Below, in pieces: positions 9,526 to 57,220 of a DNA stretch of 64,000 bases. A program made the position numbers and the translations under genes. The DNA is taken from assembly GCF_018350175.1 (NCBI RefSeq), contig NC_058368.1:111912001-111976000 (forward strand), written 5' to 3'. Source of the DNA: Felis catus (lineage: Eukaryota). A model generated the notes under the pieces. The model did no database searches and had not been told where the DNA came from. It worked only from the letters and a program-made list of their open reading frames with translations. Each line of letters begins with the position of its first letter. Within the stretch, counting starts at the first letter, position 1.

Positions 9526-10997
9526 GGAAAAAAACATAAGGTTTAAAAGCATATTTATCTTCATTGGAGAGCCTCTTGTGCAAGACAGAGATGCGGCTAC
9601 CCAACTTCAGCTAGTTGTTGTACGATGGGTATTAATTCCAGTTGCAGGCAGGGAGTGGCCATTTCAGAGCCGGTAACCCCCCCTGAAGGCGCCCCTGCAA
9701 TAGGCGGATTCCACCAAACTTACAACTAGAGTCTCCCATTCAAACCTAAAGCTGCTTGAAATTCCCCTAGTCTGTGGGGCAGGAAGCCTTGGAACAAAGC
9801 ACCTTGCCCCCTCTTTAACGGTAAAACCTCAAACCACAAAGGTGGAAGAAAAAGAGAAGCTAGCAGGAGTGCCCCTCTTAATTGTCTATTTTTATATGCT
9901 GTTTATTTGGTCGTTAAAATCTTACAAGGATTTCACGGTAATTGTAATTGTTGAATTCCAGGTTTGTCTTAGCTGATTGTACGGACATTTCTCACTTTCA
10001 AACTCAGCAACATTTTTCCTAATATCTTGTCTAAAAGAACCTTCCAGTCTGCCGACCAGATCCTTGAGTGATCCGTGGTCCCTGCAGGAGTGGAGGCAGG
10101 GCGCGCCACCCCGCACACCTGTTGTCAGGTGACACCGCCTGCAGCATCCAGCGCACTCACCTCTCCACTCCACCCCACCCCCAGCGAGTCCCTTCCCTCC
10201 CGGCCTTCTCCACCGGGAAGCCTACAGCCTTCTGGAGTTACCTTAAAAAGGAAAGAAAGAAAGAAAAAGAGAAAGGAAGAAAACACAAAAACCTCCCAAC
10301 CACAAAGCAAACAAAAGGCCGATCATAAGATGAGCGAGGGCAGCGGGGGTTCCCGCGTCCCCTCTCCAGCCAGTCCCTGGACAACCCCCACCCCGGCCCT
10401 GCCTGGCTCCAATCCCACAAGTATCCCCCAGCCGCCAACCCTCCCCTCCCCGCAGAGAGCGAGCCAGACGCCTGCACCACGGCCACCTGGCTCTCGGGCC
10501 CGACTTATTGTGCTGGGGCCGGCAACTCGCGGGCCCGCGGGGCCCTCACCAAGTACAACTCCGAGCACCGCAGCTCCCGGTCGCCCAGGCCCACGCTGGC
10601 CGGCCAGCGCCGCGGGGCCTCCCCGGGCCTCTAGCTTAGCCCGCCCGCCCGCCCTGGGAAGGGTCGCCGGGGGAGGGGCCAGCACTGTCGCCTTCCCACA
10701 AAAGCGCCCAGGCGCGGGCAGGAGGACGCGGTTTGGAGAGAAGTTGGCTTCCGGGTTCGCTGTTTGAACAAAACCAAAGAGAATCCCGCGCGGCCGGGCG
10801 GGGAGGGCCTGGGAGGGCGCCGTGCGCGCGCGAGGCCCCGCGTGGGCCACGCCGAGCGCGGCGACCCGAGCCCGGCCGAGCGCCGCCCGTGCGCGCCAGG
10901 CCCGGCCGCTCCCAGGCCCCCGCGGCCGGAAGCGCGCGGTGGCCGGACCCGGCGGCGGGGACCGGGCGCGGGGCGAGGGGGCCCGCGCGGCACTTAC

Positions 10998-11180
10998 GGG
11001 GCGGCTCGGCGGCGGCGGCGGCGGCAGCAGCTAGGTGTCCGGCCCGTGCCCTCTCGGCCGCTCGCGCCTTTTCTCTCCGCGCTCGTCGCTGGCCCGCCCG
11101 CCCGCCTCCTCGCTTCCCGCCCGCGCGCCGCGCGCTCGCCCCCTCCGCCCGGCTCCGCTGCCGAGTGAACTGGAACCAGT
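10998..11180 (-). other. MACROH2A1: MACROH2A1 non-coding exon 1
   Basis: Minus strand starts ACTGGTTCCAGTTCACTCGGCAGCGG, matching the human H2AFY mRNA 5' end as I recall it. Donor CCC|GTAAGT with GT at 10997-10996. Lies inside the CpG island. TSS position is approximate. Confidence 0.85.
11007..11024. repeat. (CGG)6 triplet run in the MACROH2A1 5' UTR
   Basis: Read directly from the sequence; followed by CAGCAGC. Confidence 0.9.
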
Positions 11181-13434
11181 CGCCGAGGCCCCGGGATTCC
11201 CACAATGCACAGCGCGCCGCTCGTCACATCCCATGCCGTCCCCGCGCGTCCGGCCACCCCTCCCGCGCCACCCGGGCGCCCCGGCCTTGACCCCAGCCCC
11301 GCGGCTGCGCGCGCCGCGGCCTCCGCGCTCCGCCGCCGGGACGTCTGTCCGTCTGTCCATCTGTCGGCGGGCCGCCCCGAGGCCCTGCCCGCGGGCACCC
11401 CGCCCCGAGGCTGGGCGCCCGACGCAGGGCGGGCCCCGCGAGCCGGGGCGCGCCCTGAGCTAAGTCCTCAGAAGGGGTCTGGTCCCTCGCAAAGGCGCTT
11501 CTCTGGCGCGCGTCGCAGCCCGTGGGTCTCGAGCGACACTTCTTGAGTGCCTACTGTGTGCCTGGCATGGAGCACGGGACTGTAGCTGACTCAGCCCTAA
11601 AAGCCTTCTCGTTAAGCCAGGGAGGGGGAGGCACAATTGCTGTTACCAGCAAGCACTTTTCCCTCCACCACCAATGCAAACCTCCCGCGCACCTGAGAAC
11701 GTTCGCCGTGTTTCCGTTCGAGCCCCCATCAAACTCTTTCCTGCCCCACGACCAGCCACTGCACATCATGCTCACCTGGGGTTCTTTATAGTGACCCCCG
11801 GAAGTCTGGACCTGCTTTGCGCATGGGAGCGGTTAGCTACTTTGATTCAGCCAACGTTCACTATTGGACTCAAACTGGGATTTACAACATCAGAAGTGAT
11901 TATCACACACACTTTTTTTTCAAACTGCAGACAAGCAGAAAGAGAAGGAACCACTGCAAAGCCCATCTGTATATTCCTAAATTGGTTCCTTGCTCTAGAG
12001 CGTTAGTGCCCCATCCAGGTTGCCTAAATAGGGACCTTCTCTCTGCGTCCCTCCCTCTCCTGGCCAAACTGTGAAGGGGGAAGCCACCTCAGCACCTAGG
12101 TGTGGACCAAATTTAAATAACAATACACGCCCAGCAGAAGTTTCCTGTGCTCTTGCTGGAGGTGACGGGAAGAGATTATGGAATTAACCCAAAACCGCTC
12201 CTCCCAACTCTCAGGCCGCCCGTATAGCAGCGGTGGTGACCTCCTCCCCTCACTATGCTGCTTTCACACTTCAAAAGTTTGCAAAGCAGTGTCGAATACA
12301 GGCCATTCATGCATTCATTAATCCGGTTAACTACTGTGGTCACACTTTGTGCCATGCTCCAATTTGGGTGATGGAGATGAAGCAGTGAACGAACAGGCAA
12401 AAATCCCAGCGTTGGAGTTTGAACCCCATAGGGAAATAGGCAATAGGAAAAAGGAGAAGCAGTCTCCTTAACAGGAGAGAACCTCTGAAAGGAAGACCAA
12501 ACCTGTCGGGGGGAGACTCGTAAAGCCTGTTGGTGCCCTGGCAGCAGACAGATGTGAAGCTTCTTCTTCGACAGGTCCTCAGTGATGGCCAAGGCCAGAC
12601 ACAGAGGATGACCGTCCGATGGATCCCAATCTGCAACCTTAGGAGGCCAAGAAGTAACTCATTCACCGCCACCCCAGTATTGGCTCTGACTCAGTGAAGA
12701 TCACATATACCCTATAATTTCACCCTCATGACAGGCAGGCTAGTTCTGTACGTTTCTACTTCCATTTTACAGATGAGGACGCTACAGTTCCAGGAAGCCA
12801 AGAAATCTGCCTGAGATCACACAGAGTTTCAAACCCAGGTTTGTCCAGGACCTGAGTTTTCATGATTCAGGCCTGAAGGGAGCCCTTCTGGAGGTTCGGT
12901 TTTCTCTATGTGCACAGTCCAGTCTTCCGTGTCCCCCAATGCAGAGAGTGGGTCTTTTTGTTCCCACCCAGTCCCACACCACCATCACTGGGTTAGAGTC
13001 TGTACCCTTCCAGAGGTGATCTTAGTGCCACCCCACCCCCAACCCCCCTCTCCGGCACACTGTTCTCATAGAACTCACTAGGAGTATCGTCCCCCAGAGC
13101 TGTTCAGGCAGAGGCCCTGTGTCCATCTCTCTTTAGAAGGCTCCACCTTTTCTCTCCTTTGTCTCTCCTCCTTATTTTGTATGCCTTTGGTGACCTGTCC
13201 CCTCACCTACTCTGGCTCAGGGAGGTTCACAAGCTGTTTCCCCTCCACTTGCAAAATAAAATGCATGTTCACCGTGTGGAACTTGGAAAATAAAATTGCA
13301 CAAAATATAAAGATCACTCTTCGTACACCACTAGGAGAGAACCACTATTCCTCTTTCAGCTTTTGTATCCATATCTACTTAATATTAAATATATTTGGGT
13401 TTCTACTGCATTTAGTGCTTGTCACCTGCTTTTT

Positions 13435-51534: not shown

Positions 51535-53325
51535 AGTTTGGCGAACGTTTTGGTCTCCGGAGGGATCATCGCTGCATTTTGAACCCCTGCGTGAAATACA
51601 AAGGCAGCTCCAAAACAGTGGGCTTCATCAGACCGCCCAGCACACGGCTTCTTCTGCTTGCCAGCCCCGACCGTGTGTCTCCCATCCAACAAACTCTAAA
51701 TATCGGGCCTTCTGGTGCAAGGAACAGGTTAAAGCCCCCTCCTGACTGCCCACCAGGGCCGCAGCAAAGGCAAAATCCTTTATCAGGAAATCACAGACTG
51801 CAGGTGAGCCCTTGGGTACGGACCCATCACGTTCCCTCTGTCAGGTTTCATGATGGTATCTAACCCTTCCTGAGTGCCTACTATGTGACAGATGCTTCAC
51901 TATGAGCTCCTAAGACCGTCATAACATCACCAGTGAATGGTGACTGTTATCTTACCCACTTGCCAGAGGGGGAAATGGAGACCAAGAGCAGGCTAAGTCC
52001 CTGGCCCAACATCACACAGCCAGTAAGTGGCATGATATTGGGCAAGATACCTTTTCTAAGCCTCAATTTCCCCAGGTGTACAATGTGTTAACACCACTGT
52101 CCATCTGAGTGTTTTGAGGATTCAGCTGGGCAAGGCACAAAGCTCCTAGCAGAGGGCTAAGCACACGTAAGCACTCACCAGACATGGCCACTTAATGGTA
52201 GAACTAATGTTAACACCAGCCCGAAGAGAGAGAGAACACAATGTTTACAGCACCAAGAACAGGGGTGATCAAATAATTCAGTGATTAGTTCCTGAACAGG
52301 GGTCTTTCATGAGCCCAGGTAAACTCTCTGGGGTCAGGGACTTTGTCAGCCTAGTTCACTGCGGGTTCCTGGGGCTTTGCATAGCATCTGGTGAAAGTTT
52401 GTTGAATAACTGAGTGAAGGACCGTTTGGGGGGCCCCCACATGCATTCACAGCATTCACCCTTCTTCTTACAGCCCTTGCCCTCCTCTGCCTTTTGCTGT
52501 AATCTGAGTGTCCTATTCCCCATTAGAAGGGAAGCCTCCCAAGCCAGGACAGGCCTGGTTCCTGCCCACTGCTGTCTTCCCCATGGAGAGGATGCTCAGA
52601 GAGTGCCTGGCAGACCAGCTGAATCTTCTTGCTCAGTGTCTCCAGGCTCAGTGTCTCCAATATCCTAGAGCATGGTCTAAGATGATGATGGCCATCTGAG
52701 TTTGTAGGTCCCTCCCTTCATGGCACGGGTGAACATTGTTTCTCAATGATGCTTGCAAGCCCCCACTGGGGAGTTGGAATGGAGATGATGTGGAGAGTAG
52801 GTACTTGTGCTCAGCCCCTCTGTTCACTGAGAAGTTGTCCCACCCTTAACCTGCATGGCTTACTAACTAGTCCCTTATATTGGAAAGACCACCCCACCCC
52901 CGTTGGTATATGACCCACTTTGAGTAAAATTACCGTTGAGCTGAATTTTACCACAACCTCTTCCCCCCACCCTCACGGACTTAGTCCTGAAAGATTTCTC
53001 TGCTCTGGGAAGCCACCTTTCCCTGGAGGTCTTGCCCTCCCATCAGCCAAGGCTTTGATCCAGAAATAACAGAGGGAGGGAGTGTGAGGATGACCGTGTG
53101 ACAGTGAGTTTCCCGGCAGGCCCAGCCCCCAGCTCCCCGCCCCCAGGAAACCCTGAGCTCTGCCCACATCCTTTCCAGAAATGTGAGCCCCCACCTTTCC
53201 AATTTCCTCTTACACCTCTTCTGTATTTCCCGCCCCTGCCTCTGCGTGACAACGTGGCGTGCACGCACCCCGTCTGGCGATCAGGGAATCCTACTGGGCA
53301 TGCCAGCTTAATGAAATACTTACAG

Positions 53326-53331
53326 TTTATT
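53326..53331 (-). terminator. Candidate proximal poly(A) signal for TIFAB
   Basis: AATAAA on the minus strand ~420 nt after the TIFAB stop codon. Confidence 0.45.
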
Positions 53332-53752: not shown

Positions 53753-54356
53753 CTAGCAGAGCATACTTTCTGAGGGCTCCTTCTGGACCTGTGTTTCTGT
53801 TCCTCCTCCAGGGCTTGGATGGGAAGGGCCGTGGAGAAGCCCCCGGTGATCTGGAGCTTGCTGCCCCGGACTTGGGGGCGGCTGCTCCTGGGGTTTGCTT
53901 TCCCATTCATCAGTCTCCTCAGCTTGGGGCCTGTGAATCAGGGGCGAGGAGCTGAGATGGAAGCAGCAGACAAAGGCCTCCAGGGAGGTGCCTCGCTCTA
54001 TGCGGACCACCATCTGGATGCCGGAGAAGGCAACCCTGTTGACCACGCTCAGTGGAACCTGCTCCAGGAACCTCAGAGTCAGCCCGTTGACCCACACACA
54101 GCCTTTGCGGCTCAGGGCCTTCAGGCAGAAGGCCAGGGGAGTGCCACCCTTCTCCCGGTAGGGCTCCAGCGACAGGTGTTTGCGGGAGAGGCACGGGAGC
54201 CGAAGCTGGAGGTGGGCGTCCGGGCCTCGCCCCACCAGCAGCGGGTTGGTGTCATGCTGCAGCTTCGGTGGGACGTTGGCAAAGGTGTCTGGGTCCTGCG
54301 TGGGGTGGTACAGGCTCACATGCAGGACCGTGAGGGGCTTCTCCGTGGATGGGAGC
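53753..54356 (-). CDS. TIFAB: TRAF-interacting protein with FHA domain-containing protein B, main coding exon
   Basis: Frame reads (R)LPSTEKPLTVLHVSLYHP...LLVGRGPDAHLQLRLPCLSRKHLSLEPY...CVWVNGLTL...PQAEETDEWE, with the FHA GR, SRxH and N motifs. Polypyrimidine tract and CCCAG| acceptor (AG at 54358-54357); stop TAG at 53755-53753. The position of the human ATG reads ACG (54346-54344). Confidence 0.95.
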
Positions 54357-54564
54357 CTGGGAAGGATGGAACACAGACAGAGAAGTGTGGTTGGAGCCTG
54401 ACACCTCTGTGACTCCCTGAACCTAGACATGCTTGCCCGGCTCAGGGGCCCTGGACCCCTCCAGCCCAACAGAGCAGAGCACGGAGTGTGGACACGGTCA
54501 TCCTGCTCAAGCCAGGATAACACCGAGGCTCAAGCTGGTGTGGAAGTTCAGCCCCACTGGTTCT

Positions 54565-54784
54565 TTTTTTTTTAATTTTTTTTAACGTTTATTCATTTTT
54601 GAGAGACAGGGACAGAGTGGGAGTGGGGGAGAGGCAGAGAGAGGGGGAGACACAGAATCCCAAGCAGGCTCCAGGTTCTGAGCTGTCAGCACAGAGCCCG
54701 ACATGGGGCTCGAACCCGTGAATCATGAGATCATGACCTGAGCCGAAGTCGGACGCTTAACCAACTGAGCCACCCAGGTGCCCC
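54565..54784 (-). mobile_element. Can-SINE in the TIFAB intron, sense to TIFAB
   Basis: Perfect 17-bp TSD TCAGCCCCACTGGTTCT. Confidence 0.96.
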
Positions 54785-55417
54785 TCAGCCCCACTGGTTC
54801 TAATCTCAGTGTCACCTTGATCATATTCTGTGAGTGGGCCTTACCACCCATCCACTCTGAGCTTTAGTTTTCTTTTCTGTACTGTCAGTATGCCCCTCCT
54901 TGTCTTTGTAAGGTATATGGGATACCAGCTTCTGCGGTGTGGTTATGGTGGTGGCCTACTGACATCTGGAGACAATCTGGCCCTGTTTTGAGGGGAGGGA
55001 AGAACAGACAGACAGGATACACCTTCCTCGTATCCAACCGTCACACAAAAATACCCTTGCTGGGCCCTTGTTTGAGCCAGGCACTGAGCAGCTGCTGGCA
55101 ATGAGTACAGGCAACAGGAGAACAAGAACTTGATTTCCGGAACACCCAGCTGGGGGAGGAGACAGGTGCCTCTTGCATCAGGAATTATGGAGAGAGAACA
55201 GGGAAGCCCAGCTGGCTCCTGGGGGAACCAGAAAGACTCCCTGGAGACCCAGAGGATGAAGAAAAACAGCTAGCATGTTCCAAGTTGCTTCTATGGGCCT
55301 GGCCCCATGCCAAGTGTATTTTGGACATGAATGTCTCACTATATGGGCAGAGGACAGATCCTGATGGAGAAGGTGGAGAGCCATGAGAGATGTCACTCAG
55401 GAACCAACAGGGGCTCA

Positions 55418-55593
55418 CGGCGTCTGGATGGCTCAGTTGGCTGAGCACCTGACTTCGGCTCAGGTCGGAATCACACAGTTTGTGAGTTCGAGCCCCGTAT
55501 CAGGCTCGCTCTGCTGCTCTCAGCACAGAGCCCTCTTCAGATGCTCTGTCCCCCTTCCCCCTCCCTAAGTCATGCATGCGCGCTCTCTCTCTT

Positions 55594-55616
<23 letters not shown>
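55418..55616 (+). mobile_element. Can-SINE in the TIFAB intron, antisense to TIFAB
   Basis: GGCGTCTGGATGGCTCAGTTGG head, A23 tail, degenerate TSD ending ACAGGGGCT. Confidence 0.9.
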
Positions 55617-55624
<8 letters not shown>

Positions 55625-56979
55625 AGGGGCTGTGTGGAGGCCAAGTAATAAGGTGGCCACAGTGTGAATCGCACACATCCTTTGTTCCAGCAACTCCATC
55701 TCTGATCATTTGTCCTTTAGAATGTCACTGGCACATGCAGTAAGGCTACTTACAATAGTCGGCTTTGCTCCTGCATGCATTTGAGGAATATAAACTCTCT
55801 GGCACATCCCCCAACCCCATATGGCCCAGAACCTGCCAGAGCCTTCACTGGGAACCAAGGGGATGAGTGGGTTTGAATAACTAATTGTACACTTTCTCGG
55901 CACCAGACTTTGCTTACAGGTTTTTCTCTGCTAAGAATGTATCCTCCATCCCAAACCCTGACCAAATACCGCTCCTCTTGAAAGGCCCGGTTCCAATGTG
56001 GCGTCTTCTAATGTAGCTCTTTTCCTGTCTCTGCCCTCTGGCCCTTTCCGGACACCGCCATTCAGTCCATCTTCTCATTACACGTCAGAATTATGTGGGT
56101 CCTCGTCCTGTCTTCCCTGAGCCCTCCTGCTCTGTCCCCTAGACTTCCCAGGATCAGGCTGTGGTCTGAGCCGCCCTGTTGCCCAGTGTCCCATTGCCCT
56201 GTACAAACAGGGCCTGGCCACATGTGTCTGGGGGCACATTTGACAAATGGCTCAGTGAAGACACGCTCACACAGGAAAATCATGTGAAACCAAGTTTAGG
56301 TACGCGGCAAATGTGAGCCTAGAGCTCAAGGGCTGTGTGTGGAGTGGCGGGGGGGGGGGGAGCGGCTGGAATCCTGTCACAGGTGGTCTGAATCTGGGAC
56401 CCTCCACCCCTTCTGCATTTTGGGTGAAGTAGGTTCATGGTGAAGACCTTCCACTCTGGCCCCTCAGGCCCCTCCCTTTTCCCTAAAGCACAGACATACA
56501 CATGTCTCCATCCACAACCCGCTCTGGCCCCAGCCTGCAGGAGACCTCCTGACTACAAAAGACAAACTGGGCCCGGAATGGCCAAGAGGGGTATCCAAGT
56601 CCTCAGGCCAGGCCAGAAACTCAGAGTTCACTTCGAGGACCCGATCTCACATCCCAGGGACCCTGAGAAAATCCCTCAGAAATGAGGGTTCACCGCTGCT
56701 CGGGAGACATTACTCTCTGCTCCACTGCGCGCTCCAGAGCCGACAGAAATCCCCCAGCAGCGCAGAGCCCCGGGAGAGGCCCTCACATCTCCAGGACCCT
56801 CCAGTTGTTCTGGGGAAGCAGAACCCAGCCCTACCAATGTCGTCTCTGGGAGGAGACAGCAGAAAGAGACTGAGATACGTGCCTGGTGAGTAGCCAGCAG
56901 GGGCTCTGCTCCCCCCCTCCCCCGCAGCCCAGCCCCGGGCCATCTCCCCTGGCTATGTGTCAAGTCCCCCTCCACCTAC

Positions 56980-57020
56980 CTTACCGCCGGGGGCACCTCT
57001 GGCTGTGACTCGGCAGCCAT
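56980..57020 (-). CDS. TIFAB: Predicted TIFAB exon-1 coding segment MAAESQPEV PPAV(R)
   Basis: ATGG at 57020-57017. The phase-2 donor AAG|GTAGGT (GT at 56979-56978) joins in frame to the phase-2 acceptor at 54356; 41+604=645 nt, giving 214 aa plus stop. Confidence 0.65.
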
Positions 57021-57039
57021 GAGCTCTCAGGAGCAAATG

Positions 57040-57220
57040 GGTCCCGGCCAGGGCAGGTCTGGCTTGGCACTTAAGGCTGCGGTTTGGGGATGTGATACGT
57101 CAGAACATTCATCAGTTTTGCTGCTTTCTTCCTTTTTCCCGTTAGGAAGGAAAATGTACGTGTGATTTCCCATTGCAGAAGTGCAACCCTAGCGCTGAGT
57201 GGTTGAGAAACCGCAGCACG
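57040..57220 (-). promoter_or_regulatory. Putative TIFAB myeloid-type promoter
   Basis: RUNX TGCGGTT at 57078-57084 and its reverse at 57209-57215; PU.1/ETS AAAAAGGAAG (minus) at 57128-57137; C/EBP-like TTGCAGAA at 57173-57180; NF-kB-like GGGAAATCAC (minus) at 57162-57171. Confidence 0.55.

Follow-up and report, generated by a model that had tools for sequence, protein, structure and literature searches.

The question raised by this locus is where the TIFAB protein begins in the domestic cat. The window, a stretch of 64,000 nucleotides of the Felis catus contig NC_058368.1, carries cat TIFAB on its minus strand, as identified by sequence and orthology searches, and the features noticed earlier from its letters hold at their coordinates (Table 1). 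The codon matching human Met1, the start of NP_001092691.1, is ACG at 54346-54344, 10 nt past the acceptor of an exon that begins at 54356, and the FHA frame of 197 codons from this ACG to TAG is intact. Exon 1 does contain an ATG at 57020 with G at +4, and its donor (AAG/GTAGGT, exon end at 56980) joins 41 nt of exon 1 and 10 nt of exon 2 into 17 codons in frame, giving 214 amino acids. The next in-frame ATG, originally placed after most of the FHA domain, lies at 54013, beyond the entire Pfam match. Our main reading, to which we assign a probability of roughly 0.7, is that TIFAB is intact in the cat and that the exon-1 ATG in the spliced mRNA replaced the ancestral start, the predicted product being a protein of 214 residues with Thr at the position of Met1.

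Table 1. Features of cat TIFAB, in window coordinates
Feature	Position	Strand	Remarks
Exon-1 ATG, likely start codon	57018..57020	-	context gagctcATGG, -3 C, +4 G; within the X11 and X12 spliced contigs
Exon 1, minimal extent in RNA	56980..57063	-	RNA contigs; one contig extends to 57325
In-frame TGA, 6 nt 5' of the ATG, closing the upstream frame	57027..57029	-	Arg in aligned meerkat and hyena models
48-codon upstream ORF from ATG 57173, same frame	57027..57173	-	long leaders only
Short uORFs from ATG 57112 and ATG 57108		-	long leaders only
Intron, GT...AG	54357..56979	-	sequence and RNA contigs
Two SINE-like repeats in the intron	about 54558-54790 and 55400-55630
ACG, Thr18 of 214, at ancestral Met1	54344..54346	-	aligned with TIFA Thr9
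Exon 2 coding part, open until TAG 53755-53753	53753..54356	-	sequence
FHA domain PF00498, residues 37-107 of the 197-aa frame	54026..54238	-	E 2.7e-06
First in-frame ATG after the ACG, codon 112, beyond the FHA match	54011..54013	-
Two out-of-frame ATGs (54321, 54255) preceding in-frame ATG 54013		-
AATAAA polyadenylation signal	53326..53331	-	RNA contigs stop at about 53274-53308

The orthology of the gene is well founded, as (i) the PF00498 domain was found and the protein matches PDB 8WWY chain B with an E value of 6.5e-63, and (ii) the genome search returned a single TIFAB and one weaker match, TIFA. Eight of the nine TIFA-binding interface residues named in PMC10945758 are the same as in human and the ninth, Y93, is F, when the sequences alone are compared. 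A structure of the TIFA-TIFAB pair has already been solved. The canonical TRAF6 motif (PxExxAr/Ac) is absent, AEETDE standing in its place. AlphaFold modelling of the 214-aa protein from a 22-sequence alignment gave a mean pLDDT of 39.8, too low to be informative.

For evidence from transcripts, eight sequencing runs of the 24 listed were compared with the locus; the list was ranked by the share of a whole 4-kb stretch covered, so that runs with only spliced RNA are probably missing from it. Runs X2, X10, X11, X12 and X14 were only guessed to be RNA, and the GT-AG junction identifies X11 and X12 as such. In the first comparison, whose table was filled by SINE reads, the junction appeared in none of four runs (X1, X2, X10 and X24) among the joins listed; X10 has no exon 2, possibly because of filtering. 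A second comparison (X11, X12, X14 and X21), made on a SINE-free stretch around exon 1, recovered the 56980-to-54356 junction sought by the original prediction in contigs of X11 and X12, i.e., in two of the eight runs overall; X14 had no exon 1 coverage, and X21 had one read around exon 1. The contigs of X11 and X12 leave the locus at 56979 and enter exon 2 letters, ACG included, the one-base offset being a G common to exon 2 and the intron. Their 5' ends, at 57063 (X11) and 57325 (X12), do not define transcription start sites (TSSs), and both lie upstream of the ATG, which the original prediction had feared might precede the mapped TSS. The X12 contig (1416 nt, depth 141) ends by its length near 53287, beside the AATAAA at 53331, and thus runs from exon 1 to the poly(A) region. 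The junction and the ATG, both being within spliced contigs, therefore occur in real transcripts. An alternative donor at 56984 (GCG/GTAAGG) was rejected; it is out of frame, would give 46 aa, and is absent from both junction contigs. We also rejected an in-frame intronic ATG at 54430-54428, 28 codons before the ACG (225 aa), which would serve only transcripts initiated within the intron; the exact 225-aa protein found no match in the protein collection. Other mammals show similar N-termini, read from the intron, on unspliced Logan/ENA contigs (P0014, P0032, P0094 and P0249).

Which of the two codons initiates can be judged from the reporter table of PMC5778536, the supplement file of which contains no AUG rows. 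AUCC-ACG-G, the cat context, scores 2.9 against 100 for CACC-AUG-G, and an ACG in a good context (CACC-ACG-G) reaches 32.2. The ACG thus lacks a strong near-cognate context, and the leader before it is not free of in-frame AUGs, as ATG 57020 is present in the spliced contigs. Because the ACG context has 2.9% of the activity of a Kozak AUG, the exon-1 ATG is the likely start, adding 17 residues to give the predicted 214 aa, and the combination of an upstream AUG in the mRNA with a weak context suggests that initiation at the ACG should be minor; the short form made from it would amount to no more than a few per cent of the protein. The context of ATG 57020 is itself only moderate, with C at -3.

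The original prediction also called for an alignment across felids and other carnivores. We examined the old Met1 site in 235 protein models, which showed Met in 184, Thr in 31, another residue in 11 and no site in nine; as these are proteins without codons, ACG is established for the cat alone. All 31 Thr carriers are carnivoran, namely the window itself, 14 felid proteins, 13 pinniped proteins (nine species), one badger and two mink; every pinniped, badger and mink examined has Thr there. Fifteen felid proteins are listed (16 in the cluster), 14 with Thr and one, Geoffroy's cat, with Met; the 17-residue extension is found in 12 of the 15, Geoffroy's cat among them. The felid exon-1 Met stands opposite Thr in models of meerkat, alpaca, dolphin and cattle and opposite Ile in Hyaena (one hyena), which indicates that ATG 57020 is a felid gain. 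Bears, seals and mustelids have a different exon-1 start, three codons downstream, with an extension of 14 residues. This extension is combined with Met in polar bear, panda, Lutra, Lontra and Mustela and with Thr in six pinniped species, badger and mink, and its presence in both kinds of models argues that the upstream ATG predates the loss of Met1. Canid models start at Met1, as do those of brown bear and sea otter, and some pinniped models have other N-termini. Outside carnivores the site holds Lys or Val in some models and, by eye, Arg or Ile in other mammalian entries. Models of relatives carry limited weight here, since gene predictors need some ATG once Met1 is lost; the extended ferret (211 aa) and cattle (222 aa) proteins have Logan sources, which implies spliced contigs.

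These data suggest the following history. On the felid stem, an exon-1 Thr codon would have turned into ATG, probably from ACG by a CpG transition (the codons of the relatives being unseen). Scanning ribosomes would then have reached the new ATG first, which would have freed the old one to change into ACG. Like events would have taken place separately in bears, seals and mustelids from the ATG three codons downstream, in each case with the upstream gain first and the loss of Met1 second. The extension, which varies at 3 of 16 columns among 12 felid proteins, much as the C-terminal tail does (11/58) and more than the core (6/138; Fisher p 0.053), is probably an N-terminal tail under loose constraint. 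The cat protein likely still inhibits TIFA through heterodimer formation and, as expected of a TIFAB, would suppress ADP-heptose/TIFA/TRAF6 signalling. TIFAB carrying GST, His or Myc tags at its N-terminus was used in the binding and inhibition assays of PMC10945758.

Three other explanations have to be weighed against an upstream shift of the start in an intact gene. That the protein is mainly made from the near-cognate ACG, the canonical 197-aa form being retained, is most improbable. It is true that G at +4 strongly aids ACG (PMC5778536), that ACG surpasses the other transition products GUG and AUA in the cat context of the same table (1.0 and 1.1, respectively, below 2.9), which could bias which change survives, and that the upstream AUG, having a pyrimidine at -3, may leak. 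Nevertheless, the gap between 2.9 and the 32.2 of a well-placed ACG, the in-frame AUG that precedes the ACG by 51 nt on the same spliced RNA and the retention of the extension ATG in 12 felid models all speak against it. Of the two branches left open by the original prediction, the move to the exon-1 ATG thus gains support from the junction contigs, the 12 felid models and the RefSeq prediction, and the ACG is unlikely to be the main start. We regard it as very unlikely, too, that cat TIFAB is decaying or poorly translated, with the exon-1 ATG a chance frame chosen by predictors. Intron-containing TIFAB RNA is plentiful (contigs of X1 and X2 extend past the acceptor into intron sequence), leaders longer than about 57108 contain uORFs, one of which stops 6 nt before ATG 57020, and several other mammals have broken or low-quality TIFAB models, for example Cervus and Dama, which are frameshifted just after the ATG. 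On the other side stand the full-length spliced X12 contig at its depth of 141, the absence of any stop or frameshift from the 15 listed felid proteins, and the low share of variable columns in the core of 12 felid proteins (6/138, against 11/58 in the tail), which points to purifying selection. Finally, the chance that the ACG is an assembly error, another concern of the original prediction, or a private allele is practically negligible. The codon is found in contigs of four runs (X1, X2, X11 and X12) from four studies, those of X1 and X2 covering 54345 with no listed difference there, and the felid proteins agree with it in 14 of 15 cases. The check at 54345 rests on contigs, as the raw-read runs X24 and X21 were sampled at 1-2% of reads and gave no usable depth; nothing in support of either an error or a private allele was found in this material.

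The residue that has taken the place of Met1 is of interest in relation to the paralogue. In the phmmer alignment, cat Thr18 is matched to TIFA Thr9, with no gap between there and the common YHP, and MAFFT with cat TIFA concurs. Phosphorylated Thr9 drives TIFA to form head-to-tail oligomers (PMC7083832, PMC13283784), and ALPK1 targets Thr9 and Thr177 in this protein (bioRxiv 2022.07.19.500647). TIFAB has been described as a pseudo-TIFA lacking both the N-terminal phosphosite and the TRAF6 motif (PMC10945758). The cat protein departs from a definition of TIFAB by the lack of Thr at the Thr9 position, and it possesses the Thr-then-Glu in the Thr9 register that marks TIFA-type ALPK1 substrates. 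The acidic flanks that surround TIFA Thr9 are absent from carnivore TIFABs; within a 10-residue window TIFA has five acidic and no basic residues, whereas the five carnivore TIFABs tested have one or two acidic and one or two basic ones. Four TIFA-type proteins have Thr in register, and two fish TIFAs have it one residue earlier. Among other TIFABs, the register holds Met in platypus, possum, newt and coelacanth and Lys in reedfish, where Met comes four residues earlier, and Thr as the ancestral TIFAB state was rejected on these grounds. Judged from the aligned proteins, Met1 is the TIFAB start from coelacanth to human.

Is the Thr selected, as a regained counterpart of TIFA Thr9 that ALPK1 or another kinase would phosphorylate in carnivores? 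If this is the case, TIFAB may dock on TIFA's FHA domain and cap or join TIFA oligomers, or may compete for the kinase. Besides the alignment without a gap, it can be argued that the +1 Glu is kept, as at the ALPK1 sites Thr9-Glu and Thr177-Glu, that the extension provides upstream residues impossible with a start at Met1, that all carnivore changes observed there are to Thr (against Lys, Val, Arg and Ile in other mammals), that ALPK1 weakly phosphorylates other threonines near Thr9, namely Thr2, Thr12 and Thr19 (PMC10113258), and that the last three kinase exons are intact in the alpha-kinase gene adjoining cat TIFA. We also fitted a codon model of four states along a time-calibrated carnivore tree, with ages, rates, tree and a few tip species taken from general background. 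This comparison, crude and post hoc, prefers a Thr bias when felids are included (2dlnL 12-18), and an equally crude and post hoc test on arctoids alone, under 12 settings that varied the rate, a mutational hotspot and GC-biased conversion, favours the bias in 12 of 12 (2dlnL 2.8-12.8, p about 0.0002-0.05). Against this, the acidic flanks of TIFA Thr9 are missing, Met persists despite the extension in Geoffroy's cat, bears, otters and Mustela, and Met to Thr requires a single transition. The arctoid pattern amounts to three steps, either three gains or one gain and two CpG reversions, and the model relies on background ages and rates and on one post hoc site, and ignores incomplete lineage sorting. 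In the same model ACG has a posterior of 0.23-0.56 in the seal-musteloid ancestor; it was possibly present there already, so that maybe only two gains, with three reversions, are needed in all. The excess of Thr over drift is unexplained by pure tolerance, and on the codon model selection on Thr may be at work; even so, we hold a selected phosphosite to be unlikely. The same applies to the wider scenario, improbable in our eyes, that the TIFAB start has lain on phospho-Thr9 since ancient times (>400 million years), doing away with the activation switch, and that cats, seals and some mustelids independently regained Thr under selection, making TIFAB a signal-responsive brake that ALPK1 can phosphorylate. 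Under the main reading, the change from Met to Thr most likely made no working phosphosite and was tolerated, or favoured weakly, instead.

How much of this is new? The spliced 214-aa protein has no differences from the cat RefSeq entry XP_003980938.2 (P0098), which has the same two exons, so the gene model was already predicted; this entry and the felid XP_ models are predictions only and are silent on the shift of the start, on how it came about and on the correspondence to Thr9. Beyond the original prediction, we find a RefSeq entry for the model, recurrence of the change in carnivores other than cats, and a Thr placed on the TIFA Thr9 position; of these, the repeated shift and the Thr are new. 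Neither was described in the listed titles and abstracts on TIFAB from a library with few subscription journals, and the one carnivora-related match, PMC13358300, concerns vocal-fold evolution in the matching part. Met1 may already be drawn beneath Thr9 in the alignment that PMC10945758 gives among its supplementary figures. Compared with human and mouse TIFAB (NP_001092691.1; 8WWY chain B; PMC10945758), the cat protein, 79% identical to the human one, shares the FHA domain, eight of the nine named interface residues and the non-binding AEETDE motif, and differs in its predicted start 17 residues earlier and in Thr at the Met1 position. With TIFA it shares Thr-Glu in the same register before strand 1 and an N-terminal tail ahead of it, but the acidic flanks and the PxExxE TRAF6 motif of TIFA are both missing, and overall identity is 26%. 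Like non-AUG-initiated mammalian genes such as EIF4G2 and POLGARF (PMC9082881), cat TIFAB has a near-cognate codon with +4 G at the homologous start; unlike them, its -3 context is weak, an in-frame AUG lies upstream and the non-AUG codon is not conserved.

Start-codon turnover, in which an upstream in-frame AUG is gained before the old one is lost, is a familiar process in orthologues. Here each of two carnivore clades employed a new ATG of its own, and the freed codon became the paralogue's regulatory residue each time. We conclude that TIFAB, itself intact, has undergone a real turnover of its start codon that is family-wide. It offers a clean and repeated example of how a start codon conserved between coelacanth and human is replaced, twice in the same order, and ortholog pipelines anchored on human Met1 may report the start as lost in cats and seals although their gene is intact. 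Should the Thr be phosphorylated, the pseudo-TIFA model without a phosphosite would fail in carnivores, cat TIFAB would offer a natural means of testing how far inhibition depends on the missing Thr9, and the brake on bacterial heptose sensing would be signal-responsive rather than constitutive.

Several side observations concern the neighbourhood of these genes. Cat TIFA is intact (185 aa; L002 1477-2034), and its Thr9 codon is likewise ACG. The alpha-kinase gene (L003), about 140 kb from it, is presumably ALPK1 by synteny; a TGA within the alpha-kinase match was dismissed as a disruption, since it sits just past a GT donor, in an intron. Upstream of TIFAB exon 1, an allele at 57141 in X12 creates an extra ATG at 57142 (a 23-codon uORF) in long leaders. 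Promoter-like motifs resembling known consensus sequences were seen by eye on the minus strand: C/EBP (57180-57172), NF-kB (57171-57162), PU.1 (57137-57128), a half-CRE (57102-57097) and RUNX (57084-57078). Those in 57180-57078 would fit a myeloid promoter with a TSS near 57060-57100. Farther away, at 10001-12000 of the window, lies a CpG island (o/e 0.83-0.98, GC 66-69%), which we take by synteny to be probably the promoter of the next gene, MACROH2A1.

The N-terminus of TIFAB varies in other mammals as well. Meerkat and hyena models (P0003, P0021 and P0109) use a third upstream ATG, 34 codons before Met1, which is kept; the cat codon at this start is GTG, and the TGA breaks the frame. In Old World deer (Dama and Cervus, Logan; P0039, P0230, P0231 and P0233-P0235) the Met1 region is read in another frame, as a small indel immediately behind the ATG would explain, with loss or another start shift as possible outcomes; reindeer and white-tailed deer models start normally. 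Low-quality or partial models occur in manatee, dugong, porcupine, armadillo, tamandua and a pangolin (P0242, P0247, P0237, P0058, P0065, P0248 and P0154, dolphin included), and TIFAB of the white-beaked dolphin has Lys at Met1 and an ATG 48 codons upstream.
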